Shown: positions 15,509 to 64,000 of the stretch, piece by piece
How the letters are laid out: each line of letters opens with the position of its first letter
Position numbering within the stretch: the first letter of the stretch is position 1
Source: Mobula birostris
Lineage: Eukaryota
Reading direction: 5' to 3'
Assembly (NCBI RefSeq): GCF_030028105.1
Contig: NC_092378.1
Span: 108,055,731-108,119,730 of the forward strand
Length of the DNA: 64,000 nt
Notes under the pieces: model-generated
The model's database searches: none
Told to the model about the DNA's origin: nothing
The model's input: the letters and a program-made list of their open reading frames with translations, nothing else
Program-made: the position numbers and the translations under genes

Positions 15509-16005
15509 CCTCTGAAATTTCGGTCCTACACGCCTCCCTTGTCTATTCGTCCTTGTCCAGGCAGCATCCTAGTAAACGTCTTCTGCACCCTCGCCAAAGC
15601 CTTGACATCCTTTCTATAATGTAGCAACCAGAACTGTATGCAATACTTGAGAGTGAACGCAGCAGGTCAGGCAGCATCTCTAGGAAGAAGTACAGTTGAC
15701 GTTTTGGGCCGAGACCCTTCGTCAAGAGTAACTGAAGGAAGCGATAGTAAGAGATTTGGAAGGGGGAGATCCAAAATGATAGAAGACAGGAGGAGGAGGG
15801 ATGGAGCCAAGAGCTGGACAGTTGATTGGCAAAAGGGATATGAGAGGATCATGGGACAGGAGGCCCAGGGAGAGGGGAAGAAAAAAACCCAGAGGATGGG
15901 CAAGGAGTGTAGTCAGAGGGACAGAGGGAGAAAAAGGGGGGAGGGAGAGAGAGAGAGAATGTGTGTATATAAATAACGGATGGGGTACGAGGGGGAGGTG
16001 GGGCA

Positions 16006-16332
16006 TTAGCGGAAGTTAGAGAAGTCAATGTTCATGCCATCAGGTTGGAGGCTACCCAGACAGAATATAAGGTGTTGTTCCTCCAACCTGAGTGTGCCTT
16101 CATCTTTACAGTAGAGGAGGCCGTGGATAGACATGTCAGAATGGGAATGGGACGTGGATTTAAAATGTGTGGCCACTGGGAGATTCTGCTTTCCCTGGCG
16201 GACAGAGCGTAGGTGTTCAGCAAAATGATCTCCCAGTCTGCATCGGGTCTCGCCAATATATAGAAGGCCACATCGGGAGCACCGGATGCAGTATGTCACC
16301 CCAACCGACTCACAGGTGAAATGTCGCCTCAC
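16006..16332 (-). pseudogene. Penelope GIY-YIG endonuclease domain (C-terminal fragment)
   Basis: GVTYCIRCSRCGLLYIGETRCRLGDHFAEH...VATHF...EQHLIF.LGSLQPDGMN: GIY-YIG with the CxxC/H..H pattern of PLE endonucleases. Confidence 0.93.
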
Positions 16333-16727
16333 CTGGAAGGACTGTCTGGGGCCCTGAATGGTGGTAAGAGAGGAAGTGTAAGGGCATGTGTAGCACTTGT
16401 TCTGCTTACAAGGATAAGTGCCAAGAGGGAGATCAGTGGAGAGGGATGGGGGGGGAACGAATGGACAAGGGAGTCGCGTAAGGAGCGATCCCTGCGGAAA
16501 GCAGAGAGACGGGGGGAGGGAAAGATGTGCTTAGTGGTGGGATCCCGTTGGAGGTGGCGGCAGTCACGGAGAATAATATGTTGGACCTGGAGGCCGGTGG
16601 GGTGGTAGGTGAGGACCAGGGGAACCCTATTCCTAGTGGGGTGGCGGGAGGATGGAGTGAGAGCAGATGTGCGTGAAATGGGGGAAGATGCATTTGAAGG
16701 CAGAGTTTGCGTGAACTCTGTGTGTTG

Positions 16728-17628
16728 TGTGACGAGAATACACATAGATTAAGATGTTTGCTGTCCTGTGCTGGCACCAGTGGGATCAGCAGTTGGTCTG
16801 CCACCTGTCTTCAGGAGAAAGAGAGATAAGGAAAACAATGGAGCAGCATTTAGAGATGTTAATGAAGGGACGGGAGAGTTTAACGGAAGGAGAGCTGTCA
16901 AGATCGGCTCCCCCTTTGAACCCTGAACTGTTTGAAGTGATGGACAGGCGATACCCCAGCAGGGGGATAAAAAGGGACAGGTTCGCTAAGGCAGGACACA
17001 CACGACACCCCGAGGTAACGAGACCCTGGAAGCGGTGCGTCTCCCACAAGTCGGTGGGAAGTTTTGGACGGCTGGTCGCGGGATCAAGCCATAGACGCAC
17101 AGGGTGGAAAGGCACGATCGGCGGGAACCTGGTGTGTGTCCACCCTTGCCTGGGTGCCAGGTTCACCGCAGAGAAATGATCGTATCTGGAAACGGAGGGG
17201 TCACGGTCCGTGACCTCAGAGGACATCACAAAGGGCTCGCACGAAAGCTGACTGCGAAGAATATCAAAGGTCTGTGTGGAAGCCGTTTGAATATTCATTC
17301 GTTTTGCTCTCTCTCTCCTTCCCCCCACTGTCCATCTCCCACCGCAGTGATTACTGCGAACTGAACTGGACTAAATTGAACTGAACTTTGCGTCACTTTG
17401 AAACTGGTCATTTACCCCTAGACAACGACAGAGCTTGATTGATCCTGTTATCTTAATTCTGTGTACATGTGTGTTTATCATTGCTGAACTGTTGCATTTA
17501 TTATCCTTTTGATTAGAGTACTGTGTTGCTTGTTTCTTTAATAAAACTTTCTTAGTTCTAGTAATCCAGACTCCAACTGAGTGATCCGTTTCTGCTGGTT
17601 TGGCAACCCAGTTACGGGGTACGTAACA
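16728..17628 (+). mobile_element. Solo LTR, 901 bp, apparently young
   Basis: Termini TGTGACG and CGTAACA (6/7 inverted match). TATA-like GATAAAAG near 16966, AATAAA near 17540, CpG-rich. Splits the Penelope repeat tip. No clean TSD (GTTG vs TAAG). Confidence 0.85.
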
Positions 17629-17751
17629 TAAGCTTGAATTTCCAGCATCTGCAGAATTCCTCGTGTTTGCAATACTTGAGATGCAGCCTAACTAGAGTTC
17701 TATAAATTTGCAACATCCTGACTTTTGAACTTTGTGTGCCTCGACACACAT

Positions 17752-26700: not shown

Positions 26701-27219
26701 TCAAATCATGTACGCTAATGACATCGAACTCCTCTGGGAGTGATAAGTTGTCACCACTTAATATTTTAAGGTGTGTTTTCTGCTGTAAAGTAGCAGAAAA
26801 GTTTCTTTTGACCTGATTTCAAATCCTCCAGTTAAGTGACAATGAAAAAATACTTTTGTGAAAAAACGCTCACACTTGGTGTTATTTTAACATGTGGTTT
26901 TTCAGCATTGTCAACTTTGCCTGCTGCAGTTAAGGGTCTCGTTAAGATCCTAATGACTTGAAACTTCAAATATGTGATCAGTATGGTAGTACACTGGCCT
27001 GGAACTTCCAGGAGGAGGGAAACCTGGTTAACACTACAAGTTGGGGGAAAAACTTGCTCCTGTACCCTGAACAATTCTTATAACTAATTTCTTCACTTGT
27101 GCACATCGCTATCCTCTAATGGAGTTCTTGCATTGACATTTAAAAGTAAACACTTGCCTCCCTAATCTTGCCTACTTAACACCATTTTGAGATGTGCCGT
27201 AAACCTCTAACGTTTTCAG

Positions 27220-27354
27220 TCACAAATGAGAAAATCTGCGGATGCTGGAAACCCAAGCACAACGCTCAAAATGCTGGAGGAACTCAGCAGTCCAGACAGC
27301 ATCTGTGGAAAAGAGTGCTGTTGACATTTCGGGCCGAGACCCTTCAGCAGCACT
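27220..27354 (-). mobile_element. Penelope terminal-repeat fragment with mutated hammerhead motif
   Basis: GAAAATCTGCGGATGCTGGAAA...GGGCCGAGACCCTTCAGCAG matches 45918-46050. Confidence 0.85.
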
Positions 27355-30018
27355 TTTCAATCATCTGCCTCTCTATCTCCCTTCTGTGGATTTGCTGTTG
27401 CCGGGTTTCCTTTAAACATTTTGCAAGCTTTTGGCCAAATACAGTCACAAATTTTCTCGCGTGTGGTTTATATTTGAGTCTGCAGATGACTGCGGCTGTG
27501 AGGCCACAAAGAAATCTTTAACCACTTCCCTTGTGGCTTTTCATTCTGTCGTCACTACACCTTTTCTTGCTCTTTTCAGGGTGCCATGGATGGCTTCTTT
27601 CTGTGTCTTTGGTCTTCTGCTGTTTCAACCCCAGCCATTTCTGCCTTGTTCAAGCAAACTAACTCTGAGATTTTTATTTTTTTTCACTGACCTAACAAGT
27701 TTAAGACGTTCACGTTACTCAAGATATTTAACTGTACATCAGCATGTGCTGAAAATGTTCACAGGGACCTGTCAGCTGATGACTACTTTGCATTTTCAGA
27801 AAATGATGCTTGCTGATATGCTAGTTGGATTTAACACCCCCCTCCCCCAGACAGATGGGGTGTCCCCAGCATTGTTCTGAACCCTTATTTTTCCACTTCT
27901 GCCCTTGGCCCTCCCTGCTACCCTTGGCTTTAAATGCCCTCTGCCTCACCATTTTGACACTTCAAAACACCACAACACTGTTTCAGACTGCTATTTTCTA
28001 GCTTTACCAGAAGATGCAACAATATGAATAGTGGAAGGAACTATGAAAGACTTAGAAAATGGTGCCAGTGCAATGCACCGCCAAGAACCTGAGAGTGGTC
28101 AATTTGATTCAATTTAAAAATGAAGGAAAGGAAGCGTCATAGTAAATAAAGGGACCAATATCTTCTTTCTCTGCAGCATTAACTAGTGACTCAATCGGTT
28201 CATATTTTGAAAGTAACAGTTTGAGAGATCTTTGGGGAGTTTTGTGAATACTTAGTACTATGAACAACATGGCTTTTAAAAAGTTGCGAACTTTCCCCAG
28301 TGGTATTAACAAAGACTTTTCCCAAATAGTTGTGCAGTGATCATGTTCCATTTCTGTGCTGCTACTGGGTGTGGGCCAAGTTTCACAAGTGTAGGCGGAG
28401 CCTTGGACATTAGTCTGAGTTCTCACCCTTTTTTCAATTGTATGAGAATTCTTTAAAGTTCTGCCCCAACAGCTTTATGGCTGTTCACCGCCTATTTCCT
28501 CCTTTCTATCTGCCTGTATCAGCTTAAGCTGAACAAAGGGCTGGCAGGCTATGAATCCTGGGCCGATGGCAATCAGTTGTGGCACCTGCATGAGCAACAG
28601 CTGGGAGAAACAGATGGTGAAACCAGATCCTCTTCACCCAGTTGAGATGGAACTCCAAATTGACAATGGCCATTGATTGAGTAGTTCATTTGTGAAGAAG
28701 TTTGAAGTTGGCATGCTTGGTGAGAGGGAGTAAAGCCCAGGCAAAATGAATTGATTGTGTAGCAGATCTGACAATTCACAAAGGTATTCTGAAGAGTTGG
28801 AGCTTCTGGAGAATTTACCCTTTATCCTGCCAGGAGTTCAAAAAATATTCATCTCCCATTTTGTTGCTTTCACTTCATTCCTCTAAGCTTTCCTGTAATT
28901 GTGGGTGGTTGAGTTAACTTCTGTCTTTTGTGCTAGAGAGCAACAGTTGTGATCAATGAAAGTTCTTATTTGCACTAGTTGACTCAGATGTCACATTGCC
29001 CAATTAGCCTGGGTTTGTGTGTGACCTTTGTCACTTGGTATTTTCAAGCCATTCATCCACAATTACTTGGCATCTAACCAGTTCTTGCCTGATATCAGCT
29101 ACATAATTCTGGCATGGTTATTGGTTAGAGGCCAGTAGTTCTTTTCGCTCCCTAAAATATGGTTACTGAGGATAGTTGTCTAGTACTGCTGACTGAGTCA
29201 TGTAGATTGGAATAAAACAAAAATCAAATTAGATAGAGCCCTTCCCTTTTTGAATTCTCAAGCCTGCTTGGTCTTTGGGAAGATTATCCATAGATGCCCT
29301 TTGGTTTGCTTTCCCTGAGGAATTGTCTAATGCAGATGTCCTGACTGAAACTGAAGCCCATTGTATTTTATTAGTCTATTCTGAATGTATAATGGCATAG
29401 GGTTGCTGTTTATTCTTGGAAAGTAAAATGATACTAAATTACAGAACATAAGCAATCCCTAGGCACTGTTCTCTAATTTTTGATTACAATAAATGCATAT
29501 GAAAACTGGCCAACGTGTTGAGAGGCCTTCATCAACTAGCTGTTGTCCGAAGTCCTGTATACAATAGTTTGGTGTCATTTGGCCAGTTTCCTTTTTAGTA
29601 AACTTTAGTACTTTAGAAATGTGTTTATTCTGTCTGCATCTTTTAGTAGACTTCCTGAATAAGTTTTTTGTCACTATGCTGATTGCAGGTATGATAACAG
29701 AGTAGCTTTTGAGTTGGTGTTAGTGATGAGTGTTCTTGTACTGCAGTGGGTAAGTGTGGATTGGAGTAGTTGCCCCCAAAGCCTTAGTTTCTGTGTCCGT
29801 CGCATAAACATGGTTTTCTTATAACAGTATGGAAAGCAACAATAACTCTCCCCAGATATCTTTTGCCTTTGAACTAATTACATTTGGTAATTGTTTTAAT
29901 GTCTAGTCAGCTCTGACCTCTATCAGTGTTTTTTTAATGCTTTTTTTATACATCTGTGGCATTTTAGTGGAATGCCACATTGTCATATGACAGATGCACG
30001 TACTGAATGTCTTCAATA

Positions 30019-44214: not shown

Positions 44215-45470
44215 GTAGAGAAGGATAACAGAGAAACAGGCCCTTTGGCCCATTTAGCCCATGTTGAAACCACTTCAACTGCCTACTCCCATTGACCTGC
44301 ACTGGGACCATAGCCCTCCATTCCCCTACCATTCAAACTTCTCTTAAATGTTGAAATAAAGCTTGCATGCACCACTTGTCCTGGCAGCTCATTCCACACT
44401 CATGACCCTCTGAGTGAAGAAATTTCCCTCATGTTCCCCTTAAACTTTCATGCTTAACCTGTGACCTGTTTGTAGTTCCACCCAATTTCACAGTGGAAAA
44501 GGCCTGCTTGCATTGGATCTATACCCTTCATAATTTTGTATACCTCTATCAAATTTTCCCTCAATCTTCTGCGTTCCAAGGAATAAAATCCTAACCTATT
44601 CAATGTTTCCTTATAAATCAGGTCCTCCAGTCCCGGCAGCGTCCTTGTAAATTCTCTCCATACTTCAAATTTATTTGCATCTTTCCTATAGGTAGGAGAC
44701 CTAAACTGCACGCAATATTCCAAATTATGCCTCCCCAATGTCTTATACCACTTCAAGTTAACATCCCATCTCCTGCACTCAATACATTGATTTAGGAAGA
44801 TCATTCTGCCAAAGGCTTTCTTTACGATCCTGTCTACCTGTGACACCACTTTCAACAAATTATGGACCTATATTCCAAGACCCCTTTGTTCACACTCCTC
44901 AGTTCATTTTGCAAAACTTCACACTTGTCTGTGTTAAATTCCATCTGCCACTTTTCCAACTGATGTGGATCCCTCTGCAAGCTATGGTAGCCTTCCTCAT
45001 TGTCCACTGCACGCCCAATCATGGTGTGATCCACAAATCTGCTGATCCAGATCATTGCTCTTGATGACAAACAACAATGGACCCAGCACCGATTTCTGTG
45101 GCATTCAGCTGGTCACAGTCCTCCAGTCAGAGAGGCAACCATCTACTACCACCCTCTGGCTTCTCCCACAAAGCCAATTTGCTACCTCGTCCTGAATGCC
45201 AAGCAACTGAACCTTCTTGACCAGCCTCCCATGCGGGACCTTGTCAAATGCCTTGTTAAAGTTCAAGTAGACAACATCCACTCCCCTGCCTTCATCCACA
45301 TTCCTGGTAATATCCTCGAAAATCTCTATCAGATTGTTAGACATGACCTACCATGTACAAAGCCATGATGACTATCCTTAATCAGTCCATATCTATCCGA
45401 ATACTTATATCTCCAGTCCTTTAGAATAACTTGCCCACAACTGATGTCAGACTCACCAGCCTGTTAATTT
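44215..45470 (-). mobile_element. CR1 LINE RT/3' fragment with internal deletions
   Basis: VSLTSVVGKL, VDVVYLNFNKAFDKVPHGRL, EKWQMEFNTDKCEVL, LEYCVQF, YSLERRRLR. Confidence 0.9.
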
Positions 45471-45535
45471 TCTGGGAGTGGTGTACAGCTGCTGATAATG
45501 GTGAAACTTGCTGTGTAAACTTGGCTGTGCTGGAC

Positions 45536-45623
45536 ATTTCGGACGAAGGGTCTTGGCCCAAAACATCGACTATACCTCTACCTAGAGATGCTGCCTGGCC
45601 TGCGGCGTTCACCAGCAACTTTT
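45536..45623 (+). mobile_element. Penelope terminal-repeat fragment with truncated/mutated hammerhead
   Basis: GACGAAGGGTCTTGGCCCAAAACATCGACTATACC...GTTCACCAGCAACTTT. Confidence 0.85.
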
Positions 45624-46014
45624 AAGAGTGTTAGATTGAACTTTTTTTTGGTGTGCAGGATGGGAACTATATTTTAAATGGCAGTCTGTTCCCTCGAATA
45701 ATGTTGAACTATCGTACAACACTTGATGTATAAGACATTAAGGTTATTGATGGGAATGGACTTTGAAAATTTCCACTACACCACTGATTAGCAGTGAACA
45801 TTAACCGGATTGGTTCATTGAGTCTCCCCGCCCAATCACCCAAAGTGGAGTAAGTATTTGTCCAGACTGGGAGTGCAGGAACAGGGGCTGGGGAATCAAT
45901 AGCCTGGTTTATGTGCAAACAACAGGAATTCTGTAGATGCTGGAAATTCAAGCAGCACACATCAAAGTTGCTGGTGAACTCAGCAGGCCAGGCAGCATCT
46001 CTAGGAAGAGGTAC

Positions 46015-46050
46015 AGTCGACGTTTCAGGCCAAGACCCTTCATCAGGACT
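46015..46050 (-). ncRNA. Minimal type I hammerhead ribozyme motif, core intact
   Basis: AGUC-CUGAUGA-AGGGUCUUGGCCU-GAA-ACGU-C-GACU: helix I AGUC/GACU, CUGANGA and GAAA core, palindromic ACGU helix III, GUC cleavage triplet. Confidence 0.8.
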
Positions 46051-46098
46051 CCCCCTCCCCCTCCCACTTTCAAATCTCTTACTAACTCTTCCTTCAGT

Positions 46099-46136
46099 TA
46101 GTCCTGACGAAGGGTCTCGGCCTGAAACGTCGACTA
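46099..46136 (+). ncRNA. Minimal type I hammerhead ribozyme motif, core intact
   Basis: UAGUC-CUGACGA-AGGGUCUCGGCCU-GAA-ACGU-C-GACUA. Confidence 0.8.
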
Positions 46137-46252
46137 TACCTCTTCCTAGAGATGCTGCCTGGCCTGCTGCGTTCACTAGCAACTTTGATGTGTGTTGCCT
46201 GGTTTATGTGCATTGTTTTCTGAGATAACTGTTGCTACTATCACTTGTTGGT

Positions 46253-46679
46253 AAGATGGTGGCACGCTTGGATGCAATGACTTCTATGGAGCCAGCAGCC
46301 AAAGTTGTTGACTTTTTAAACATTATTTATGATGGCAAAGACCTGCTGGACATTAGAACTCAACTGGAGAGAGTTGTTATGCTCCACTGGAGTACCACAG
46401 GTGGTGTGGCATGGCAAACGTGCTGGAGTCTGTGCTGTCCTTTAGTGTCCACTAGGCAGAAGACGAGTTGTATTGTGACGAGCTGTGTTACTGCTGCAAC
46501 ATTCATGGACCGTCTTGAACCAGCCTTTTTGTTTGTGTGTGATTATATTTTAGTACTATATGTGCTTTATACTGTGCATGACATTTGGTACTGTGTTTTG
46601 CATCTTGGCTCTGGAGTAACGATATTTCATTTGACTGTGTTCATGTATGGTTGAATGACCATTAAATTTGAAATTGAAA
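46253..46679 (+). mobile_element. Non-autonomous retroelement with AAGATGG(C/T)G head and Rex1-type tail, older copy
   Basis: Starts AAGATGGTGGC. Ends TGAATGACCATTAAATTTGAAATTGAA, like the tail at 24975-25002. Confidence 0.5.
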
Positions 46680-46718
46680 GATGGTCATCAGATTGGGGAC
46701 AGTACACTGATGTGCCTG

Positions 46719-46820
46719 TGCCCTGATGAAAGGTCTTGGTCTGAAACCTTGACTGTCTACTCTTTTCCATAGATGCTGCCTGGCCTGCTGCATTCCTCCA
46801 GCATTTTGAGTGTGTTACCT
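46719..46820 (+). mobile_element. Penelope terminal-repeat fragment with degenerate hammerhead
   Basis: CTGATGAAAGGTCTTGGTCTGAAACCTTGACTG...CATAGATGCTGCCTGGCCTGCTG. Confidence 0.8.
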
Positions 46821-47632
46821 CCTAATGTGTGTCAGCTCAGAAGTGACCAGGAGCCCAACTTGCAGGAAATGAAAATTTTTAAATTGCAACAGGTTCTGGA
46901 CCTGAAATATCAACTGCTTCTCTTTCTCCAGATGCTTCGTGACCCAAACATTTCCAATATCTTTTCTTGTTATTGGTAACTTGCAAGATGAATCGGATCT
47001 GTTCCAGGGTGCACTTTCCCTGAAAGTGAGGCATGTAACTGTGCTTTACGTAGCTTCTGCACCACATAATCACTATGCACCAGTCTATGATGATCCCAGG
47101 AACCTGTTCATCACCAGTGAGGCTTGTAAGACCCTTTCCTCTTCCAGTTTTTGTGGGGAAAATATCATGGTAATACAAGTCCAAGCTGGTGTTTGGGGCA
47201 CATTTGTAGCCAAGGGATAATGTAAGGGACTCGTGGAGGATGGACAACCTAGCTTTGCAATTTAATTTGTTAAAATTGGACAAATTTAAGAGAAGTTAAT
47301 TATATTTTTAAAAAAACGCCAGGCCGGTACTGTTAACGCGAACTCTGAATAGTAAAGGCAGCCTGCAAGAGCAGTGTTTGTGTAGGCATTTTGGAGTTAC
47401 ATCATTGTAACATAATGTCTGTGCTAATGGCTTTTTTTAGGATTGGTTCTTTGGCTGCCTGCCTTTAATTGCACCGACCCCCTGGCTCCAGTGATGTCAT
47501 TAAGATAATTTGGATATCTGGAAGTTAATTTTTTTTTATATATAATTGCTCTCTGTTCAAAATAGAACTCACGATCACTGCAGAAAGAGTCGTTCATTTA
47601 CAATGAGGGCCAACTTAAAGGAAAGTGAAATG

Positions 47633-62289: not shown

Positions 62290-62856
62290 AGAATTCGAGC
62301 AACACGCATAAAAGTTCCTGGTGAATGCAGCAGGCCAGGCAGCATGGAAGAGGTACAGTCGACGTTTCGGGCTGAGACCCTTCGTCAGGACTAACTGAAG
62401 GAAGAGCTAGTAAGAGATTTGAAAGTGGGAGGGGGAGGGAGAGATCCAAAATGATAGGAGAAGACAGGAGGGGGAGGGATGGAGCCAAGAGCTGGACAGG
62501 TGATTGGCAAAAGGGATATGAGGGGATCATGGGACAGGAGGCCCAGAGAGAAGGAAAAGGGGGAGGGGGGGAAACCCCAGAGGATGGGCAAGGGGTATAG
62601 TCAGAGGGACAGAGGGAGAAAAAGGAGAGAGAGAGAAAGAATGTCTGTATATAAATAAAAAACGGATGGGGTACGAGGGGGAGGCGGGGCATTAGCGGAA
62701 GTTAGAGAAGTCAATGTTCATGCCATCAGGTTGGAGGCTACCCAGACGGAATATAAGGTGTTATTCCTCCAACCTGAGTGTGGCTTCATCTTTACAATAG
62801 AGGAGGCCATGGATAGACATATCAGAATGGGAATGGGACGTGGAATTAAAATGTGT
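62290..62856 (-). mobile_element. Penelope-like element 3' fragment, same subfamily as 15653
   Basis: Closely matches 15653-16170. 21-bp duplication at the truncation point (62817-62837, 62857-62877). Confidence 0.92.
62357..62392 (-). ncRNA. Minimal type I hammerhead ribozyme motif, core intact
   Basis: AGUC-CUGACGA-AGGGUCUCAGCCC-GAA-ACGU-C-GACU. Confidence 0.8.
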
Positions 62857-63067: not shown

Positions 63068-64000
63068 TTAAATTTTGTTCTTCACAGAGGCATCTGGTAA
63101 AGCCTCTTCACCACTCTCGTCACCTTGACTCGATGCACATAACGTCGGAGAAGCTCACCAGCTGCTGCTTTTCAAAGTAAACACTCTCCAATGAATTGGG
63201 TAGTGGATTTTGAGTAGAGTGGTACTGTTCAGTACCTGTACGATCATATCTCAGAACCTGCGATCCATCCTCAACACAGGTGTATGGGCTGCCATTCTCT
63301 ATTCCCAAAAATTGATGAAGGTCTGGGAGAACACAGATTATCTTCTGCACCATCATGAACACCAACCAACCTGGAACTCTCATGGTGTTGATTTCCAGCA
63401 CTCAGGAGTGATATTGCTGAGTCTGACTGCAGAAACTGGAGTTGTTGCTGCTATTTATTGGGGGAAGGTAAATTGTGTGACATAGTTACACATCAACAAT
63501 GGTTGACAACTAGATGAATCAAATGACTAAATATGGGCAGATATACTGTTAATGTCCTAATATGATGAAGCCATCATTACAACAACCATATTTGAGCACA
63601 GTGTTTATCATCCCCTCAATAAATAGCAGCAACAACTCCAGTCAGACTCAGCAATATCACTCCTGAGTGCTGGAAATCAACACCATGAGAGTTCCAGGTT
63701 GGTTGGTGTTCATGATGGTGCAGAAGATAATCTGTGTTCTCCCAGACCTTCATCAATTTTTTGGAATAGAGAATGGCAGCCCATACACCTGTGTCGAGGA
63801 TGGATCGCAGGTTCTGAGATATGATCGTACAGGTACTGAACGGTACCACTCCACTCAAAATCCACTACCCAATTCATTGGAGAGTGTTTACTTTGAAAAG
63901 CAGCAGCTGGTGAGCTTCTCCGATGTTATGTGCATCGAGTCAAGGTGACGAGAGTGGTGAAGAGGCTTTACCAGATGCCTCTGTGAAGAACAAAATTTAA
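63068..64000. repeat. Long inverted repeat: arms ~63068-63465 and ~63611-64000 (right arm runs off the window), spacer ~145 bp
   Basis: ORFs 63120-63401(-) and 63667-63948(+) differ at 2 of 93 aa. By eye about 5 substitutions plus a 9-bp indel over ~390 bp. Confidence 0.97.

Follow-up and report, generated by a model that had tools for sequence, protein, structure and literature searches.

In the published scheme of insertion by Penelope-like elements (PLEs), a copy is accompanied by an inverted, 5′-truncated copy, a tail of 30-40 bp is often present at one end only, and the target-site duplication (TSD) is short and variable (PMC8557442). Insertions of Pen2a_Av and Pen2_Av have a 31-bp tail, TSDs of 8-10 bp and joints with microhomology, and head-to-head is their commonest arrangement (PMC3846280). 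The formation of such inverted structures is described as undefined in PMC8557442, while the Discussion of PMC3846280 proposes self-priming for head-to-head inversions; the same paper describes microhomology deletions in PLEs. An Anolis PLE protein, Poseidon_Ac (PAc), nicks and extends both strands in vitro and starts at two sites flanking the tail; the enzyme needed RNA reaching about 55 nt past these starts (the RNA required took in the first 172 nt of the ORF, and the starts lie at 111-118), and the parts of that study compared here offer no explanation of inverted joints (PMC11167929). Metazoan PLEs also carry minimal type I hammerhead motifs, for which no cleavage was reported as single motifs and low cleavage as dimers, and opposite-strand pairs of these motifs, 100-700 bp apart, are known in Schistosoma (PMC4209133). 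The word "shark" occurs 0 times in the main text of that paper, and cartilaginous fish lie outside the sections of it that were compared. In Anolis the PLE motif needed protein in order to cleave, and insertion could proceed without the motif (PMC11167929). A literature search, with subscription papers and supplements largely outside its reach, found no paper on mini-palindromes of rays or sharks or on twin priming by PLEs, which is weak evidence that none exists.

The locus described here lies in a 64,000-nt stretch of Mobula birostris DNA (NC_092378.1, positions 108,055,731 to 108,119,730; hereafter the window). It very probably consists of two 5′-truncated PLE ends placed head to head in a true 16-bp TSD, the likely product of one integration event and likely immobile. 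The element is a real, well-bounded and ordinary PLE stump whose architecture has already been published. Its parts are listed in Table 1.

Table 1. Parts of the palindromic PLE insertion, in window coordinates.
Feature	Position	Strand	Remarks
Left TSD copy, 16 bp	45902..45917	.	Exact match to right copy; empty site in organism C
PLE tail, 31-36 nt	45918..45953 (45918-45948/53)	-	Present on left arm only
Arm 1, pLTR end, sense on - strand	45954..46050	-	5′-truncated exactly at start of hammerhead helix I
Minimal type I hammerhead, arm 1	46015..46050	-	Core nucleotides retained, helix III loop-less, G10.1·U11.1; cleavage predicted between 46019 and 46018
Head-to-head junction, 2-nt microhomology common to both arms	46049..46050	.	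Arms overlap here; contigs have loose ends on either side (before 46049, behind 46050)
Spacer, native 3′ UTR of parent PLE	46051..46099	+	About 90% match to family copies
Arm 2, pLTR end, sense on + strand, without tail	46100..46196	+	Likely begun at the proximal reverse-transcription start
Minimal type I hammerhead, arm 2	46100..46135	+	As for arm 1; cleavage predicted after 46131
Right TSD copy, 16 bp	46197..46212	.	Exact match to left copy

The inverted arms align over 45949-46050 and 46100-46201 with 93% identity and a 49-nt gap; counted inside the insert, each is 97 nt long and 91 of the 97 positions are identical. Two of the six differences are CpG transitions and none is compensatory, and by their sequence they look like neutral decay. 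In element orientation, arm 1 runs from the first base of helix I to the end of the 31-36-nt tail, while arm 2 has its start 51 nt before helix I and no tail at its end. The same tail is carried by window copies at 17632-17667, 27229 and 53435. The tail of arm 1 likely marks the distal start of reverse transcription, and the tail-less end of arm 2 likely marks the proximal one. The preliminary description had seen only two inverted terminal repeats around a 49-bp pyrimidine-rich spacer. The inverted arms and the gap were found as described, but the left arm has the unmatched tail, and the spacer proved to be no special part: it is 3′ UTR sequence of the family itself, matching at about 90% what precedes the hammerhead in the copies at 62292-62443 and 15652-15768. 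In three runs, loose ends before 46049 run on as native body sequence.

As in described PLE insertions, the hammerhead lies within the pLTR, an inverted 5′-truncated copy adjoins at the 5′ end, and the tail, within the usual 30-40 bp, is found at one end only. The closest match is with insertions of Pen2a_Av and Pen2_Av, which likewise join 5′-truncated pLTRs head to head, with a tail of the 31-nt class, a short TSD and a microhomology junction (PMC3846280; scheme in PMC8557442, fig. 2). Unlike those insertions, both arms here are cut back to near the pLTR end alone, giving 279 bp in total, with a TSD of 16 bp where theirs measure 8-10 bp (PMC3846280).

The two TSD copies agree at 16 of 16 positions, whereas the same search on random end pairs gave scores of 12 or more in 0 of 1478 and of 8 or more in 0.7%. 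Four public runs were aligned to 44900-47300. Both outer junctions were present in organism A (run X1, 0 differences) and in organism B (run X5), which differs from A by about 2%; organism B counts as independent support because X1 may be the window's own source. In organism C (run X9, 10-13% diverged), one 627-nt contig crosses the site: it aligns first to 45714-45877 and next to 46195-46582, which makes the site 296 bp shorter, against an expected 295 bp (insert plus one TSD). The empty site, known as aligned ranges from one contig of one relative, has the TSD target in single copy. Because organism C carries this shorter, empty site, the TSD is a true insertion scar, and the insertion, present in A and B and absent from C, is dated between the split of C and the split of A and B. 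The preliminary description had thus been right in reading a single 279-bp insertion with a perfect 16-bp TSD, and the empty site that it had suggested seeking in related species is there. The last 3 nt of the left TSD also match family sequence beyond the tail, a likely priming microhomology judging from the letters, and the right TSD agrees with the family sequence continuing from arm 2 in its first 2 nt, and in 4 of its first 5. A young, lineage-limited stump of this kind matters little as a single locus; its value is as a clean example, in which the empty site, both priming ends and the central joint can all be read within 311 bp.

The insert matches nine other places in the window, and the longer copies extend into an ORF that encodes a C-X4-C-xx-C linker as well as a GIY-YIG core. 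One of them, 15652-16707, matches both arm and spacer, and its ORF (16009-16530, - strand) has both features. The best relatives of this ORF are gene models from Hypanus, Mobula and Rhincodon, with 73-87% identity in the best matches from Hypanus and Mobula. Among eight relatives scanned, GIY-YIG was recognised in three, two of which also had RVT_1, with scores mostly near or below Pfam cut-offs. A CX2-5CxxC linker upstream of GIY-YIG is the Neptune motif, which Nematis shares (PMC8557442). The parent, whose linker has this form, may thus be classed from its sequence as a Neptune-like PLE of rays, although by motif Nematis also fits. The derivation from Penelope in the preliminary description is therefore upheld by the pLTR arms, the native spacer and the copies leading into a GIY-YIG ORF. 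Candidate TSDs, 8-18 bp long, scored 8 or more in 5 of the 10 window copies, against 0.7% of random pairs. The 26-nt family motif had 0 matches in metagenome and viral contigs; 66 metagenome loci with a 19-nt motif were put down to chance, none matching the insert over more than 28 nt.

A tailed solo pLTR (27223-27354, within 27213-27363), which stops precisely on the first base of helix I, has a 10-bp candidate TSD with one mismatch and no inverted partner. Another PLE insertion bounded by a TSD, 15635-17681 (14 bp exact, or 18 bp with one mismatch), has a 1.05-kb tail-less arm and the tail at its far end. Within it, a segment of about 920 bp (16708-17631), single-copy in the window, begins with TG and ends near CA and is possibly a solo LTR. 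Two decayed, hammerhead-bearing pLTR fragments, 45542-45632 and 46722-46816, both on the + strand, lie within 0.6 kb of the element; they start 3-6 nt inside the helix-I boundary, both have damaged cores, and neither showed a TSD. Three ray gene models named as host genes (P0003, P0005 and P0010) consist largely of PLE ORF sequence, so the ray annotation either is contaminated by the parent family or exonises it.

The structure is best explained by twin priming at one landing. The GIY-YIG endonuclease would nick both strands 16 nt apart, and each 3′ end would prime its own cDNA, one from the distal start with the tail and one from the proximal start without it. The tailed cDNA would stop at a fixed point, the start of helix I, which is probably the 5′ boundary of the RNA, the other would have gone on for 51 nt more into the 3′ UTR before stalling, and the 2-nt microhomology would serve to join both ends. 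The palindrome would thus be a by-product. Two-strand nicking and two starts, as found for PAc in vitro, fit one tailed and one tail-less arm (PMC11167929). PAc belongs to the Poseidon clade, whereas the parent here has the CX2-5CxxC linker, and priming by PAc needed no primer homology, whereas matches of 2-3 nt are seen here (PMC11167929); we infer by analogy that two-strand priming extends to a Neptune-like family. An unlikely alternative is fold-back, in which the proximally primed cDNA would enter the 3′ UTR, fold on the 2-nt microhomology, copy itself and jump to a short tail cDNA from the other nick, in keeping with the self-priming proposed in PMC3846280. Both arms share a change of C11.1 to T where C is kept in 4 of 8 other window copies and in the majority of loose ends at 46758 (runs X1 and X5), as would suit copying of one arm from the other, although the shared T may stem from the source subfamily. 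The six arm differences do not separate the two routes. Fold-back alone cannot supply the 36-nt tail absent from arm 2, it makes the helix-I boundary a landing site here when the boundary is a cDNA end in other junctions, and it fails to explain the partnerless, TSD-bounded solo copy at 27223-27354 with the same helix-I stop. With some reserve, twin priming is therefore preferred to fold-back. That the arrangement stems from misassembly, or from later deletion within a longer inverted element, is quite improbable: both outer junctions occur in the runs of two organisms, the empty site is shorter by the predicted length, and the end of arm 1 falls precisely on the recurrent boundary, a position for which random deletion would have no preference. 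Such an origin would accord with a 483-N gap in the window, with the tendency of palindromes to misassemble and with the microhomology deletions described in PLEs (PMC3846280), and none of the contigs listed spans the centre junction.

The preliminary description had left open whether the insert was a one-off integration product or a retrozyme- or MITE-like family. Among the 15 joints listed (of which there are 2302 more), at least five are further head-to-head junctions with one end within 46100-46103 and the other at a point that differs from junction to junction; the clustering is partly biased because diverged subfamilies stop aligning there. Family contigs leave the centre junction on both sides, with 133 and 496 loose ends in run X1. 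Some other junction types reach a summed contig depth of 100-250, whereas single-copy flanks have 4.6-4.9 in X1 and about 12-14 in X5, with the provisos that contig depth does not measure copy number and that repeats often give rise to joints whose sides are shorter than 30 nt. Such deep, recurrent junctions could reflect recurrent formation or amplification of whole palindromes. The many different centre junctions favour a one-off product, and with the unequal arms they make this the better of the two options. MITEs have the terminal inverted repeats of DNA transposons and a TSD of fixed length; the arms here are unequal pLTR ends and the candidate TSDs of the family vary from 8 to 18 bp, which, with the many centre junctions, leaves the MITE reading weak. 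Non-LTR retrozymes are likewise derived from PLEs, non-coding and provided with a type I hammerhead, but they form head-to-tail tandems with ribozymes on the same strand, whereas the arms here are head to head with one ribozyme per strand (bioRxiv 10.64898/2026.07.22.740005), and this reading too found no support. It is improbable, more broadly, that a non-autonomous palindromic family is remobilised as a unit by the PLE protein. Recurrence of some other junction classes at 100-250 summed depth (X1/X5) would suit such a family, and non-autonomous PLE derivatives exist (PMC8557442; bioRxiv 10.64898/2026.07.22.740005). However, the unit likely lacks a binding site, because the insert ends at the reverse-transcription starts and the Anolis RNA was needed about 55 nt beyond them (PMC11167929); this likely loss, the heterogeneous centres, the variable TSDs and the unequal arms argue for construction at each landing.

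Many arms of the family stop at one point, the start of hammerhead helix I, a signal partly biased by divergence of subfamilies upstream. What we take to be an initiator-like motif has its A at 46100, and this A falls exactly at the boundary in all six copies with upstream sequence, although each copy holds 2-7 such motifs; CCAAT lies at -100 to -115 of the boundary in 3 of 5 long copies. What we take for a splice-acceptor pattern fits as well: YAG ends two bases past the boundary in 5 of 6 copies, and a branch-like motif lies at -14 to -26 in 6 of 6, with 78-85% pyrimidines. In the spacer itself, presumed branch-point-like motifs have their A at 46081 and 46085, and the spacer also holds a pyrimidine tract, a CAG (46095-97) and a TAG (46099-46101). 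This stretch, 46078-46101, is unpaired in the loop of the predicted hairpin, and it may represent a 3′ splice site, open to exonisation should a host transcript from the + strand include it. A single predicted Mobula gene model, P0017, holds the pLTR peptide internally, which would fit use of the CAG acceptor. No GTRAG splice donor was found within about 300 nt upstream of helix I in any of five copies. In D. virilis, an intron likewise ends at the 5′ end of helix I (PMC4209133). As the cause of the boundary, a start site seems slightly the likeliest, a splice acceptor nearly as likely, and a stall of the polymerase rather unlikely. We tentatively suggest, at somewhat less than even confidence, that ray and shark mini-palindromes represent intermediates of twin priming that became frozen: of two cDNAs, one from each nick, one would have run off a fixed RNA boundary at the first base of helix I, either a transcription start or a conserved 3′ splice site, and microhomology would have joined the two. 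If so, the large number of palindromes would let junction statistics settle both the origin of PLE inversions and the start of the PLE RNA. The fixed boundary is a lead worth keeping, as a handle on the mechanism of PLE integration, and the stop at helix I, if it recurs genome-wide, would provide a direct test of twin priming against antisense self-priming.

An intact hammerhead on each strand had been claimed in the preliminary description. The core nucleotides are indeed kept in both arms, but neither motif is that of a canonical, monomer-active hammerhead: helix III is a four-base palindrome without a loop, and the base of helix II has a G·U in place of the G10.1-C11.1 pair. Apart from this G·U, the motifs resemble the minimal type I hammerheads of metazoan PLEs in the core, the missing helix III loop, the extra base before helix II and the palindromic 15.2-16.2 (PMC4209133). 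Rfam gave 0 matches at gathering thresholds in the whole window, and at E<=10 it gave five weak matches in 45400-46900, with no hammerhead family among them; the best, mir-4650 (37.7 bits against a cut-off of 80.7), was read as a hairpin look-alike. The ribozyme had further been supposed to be masked by its own hairpin. The hairpin is predicted to bury the motif, forcing the hammerhead fold at a cost of about 52 kcal/mol, but the point is moot because the minimal type is reported to be inactive as a monomer, and the second copy, being antisense, offers no dimer partner. By analogy with these reports, there is probably little ribozyme activity to mask. At the element's age, retention of the core needs no selection.

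The long hairpin foreseen for the transcript was supported by folding. Predicted energies of the insert RNA were -198 kcal/mol (+ strand) and -208 kcal/mol (- strand), with z scores of -20.6 and -18.7, and for neither strand did any of 100 shuffled controls equal this. Uninterrupted pairing extends over at most 33 bp in the + strand RNA and 70 bp in the - strand RNA, and a 1.35-kb fold gave no opening of the hairpin by pairing with the neighbouring copies at 45542 and 46722. If any host transcript were to run through the palindrome, it would give a dsRNA accessible to ADAR or Dicer, as with Penelope inversions elsewhere. In lizard, just one further LINE is massively edited, namely Penelope, and in frog editing affects palindromic repeats (PMC5625713); in transgenic flies, siRNAs map to Penelope inversions (PMC3681739). 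By this analogy, the idea of an ADAR substrate or a source of endo-siRNA is plausible and generic, with Penelope precedent. In Xenopus, self-folding Harbinger repeats of 200-280 nt similarly give dsRNA without a neighbour and are ADAR targets; they are DNA-transposon MITEs with a palindromic consensus (PMC5625713), whereas the palindrome here appears to have been made at insertion.

A selected regulatory role for this copy, as an ADAR substrate, an endo-siRNA source against the family or a ribozyme switch, is highly improbable, even with the predicted unbroken duplex and the editing and siRNA precedents in its favour. The element is young, being absent from organism C, no change in the arms is compensatory, and without selection the 14 core nucleotides would survive about 3% decay with a probability of about 0.65 per arm. 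Such palindromes appear common in the genome, so this copy alone is unlikely to matter, and nothing marks it as selected. If palindromes are as common as the contigs suggest, they could together be a main source of dsRNA for ADAR in these fishes, for which precedent exists. Run X17, guessed to be RNA and flagged as probably DNA, had no cover on the unique flanks and weighs neither way. One of its contigs has a strand-switching joint, 46101/46759, at the helix-I boundary, with a depth of 1049, the highest among the joints listed; it is possibly an abundant palindrome-bearing sequence, and the run may be DNA.

Elsewhere in the window, no host gene was recognised at curated Pfam cut-offs among 275 of 313 stop-to-stop frames of at least 62 aa or among 8 frames scanned separately, a search in which short exons are missable; the best matches among the scanned frames were LINE domains, and no relative was found for the candidate exon 63123-63401. 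The last part of the window, 63068-64000, holds an inverted duplication that is not Penelope, with at least 365 nt at 98% identity around a 203-nt centre; it runs off the window edge and is either recent or an assembly artefact.
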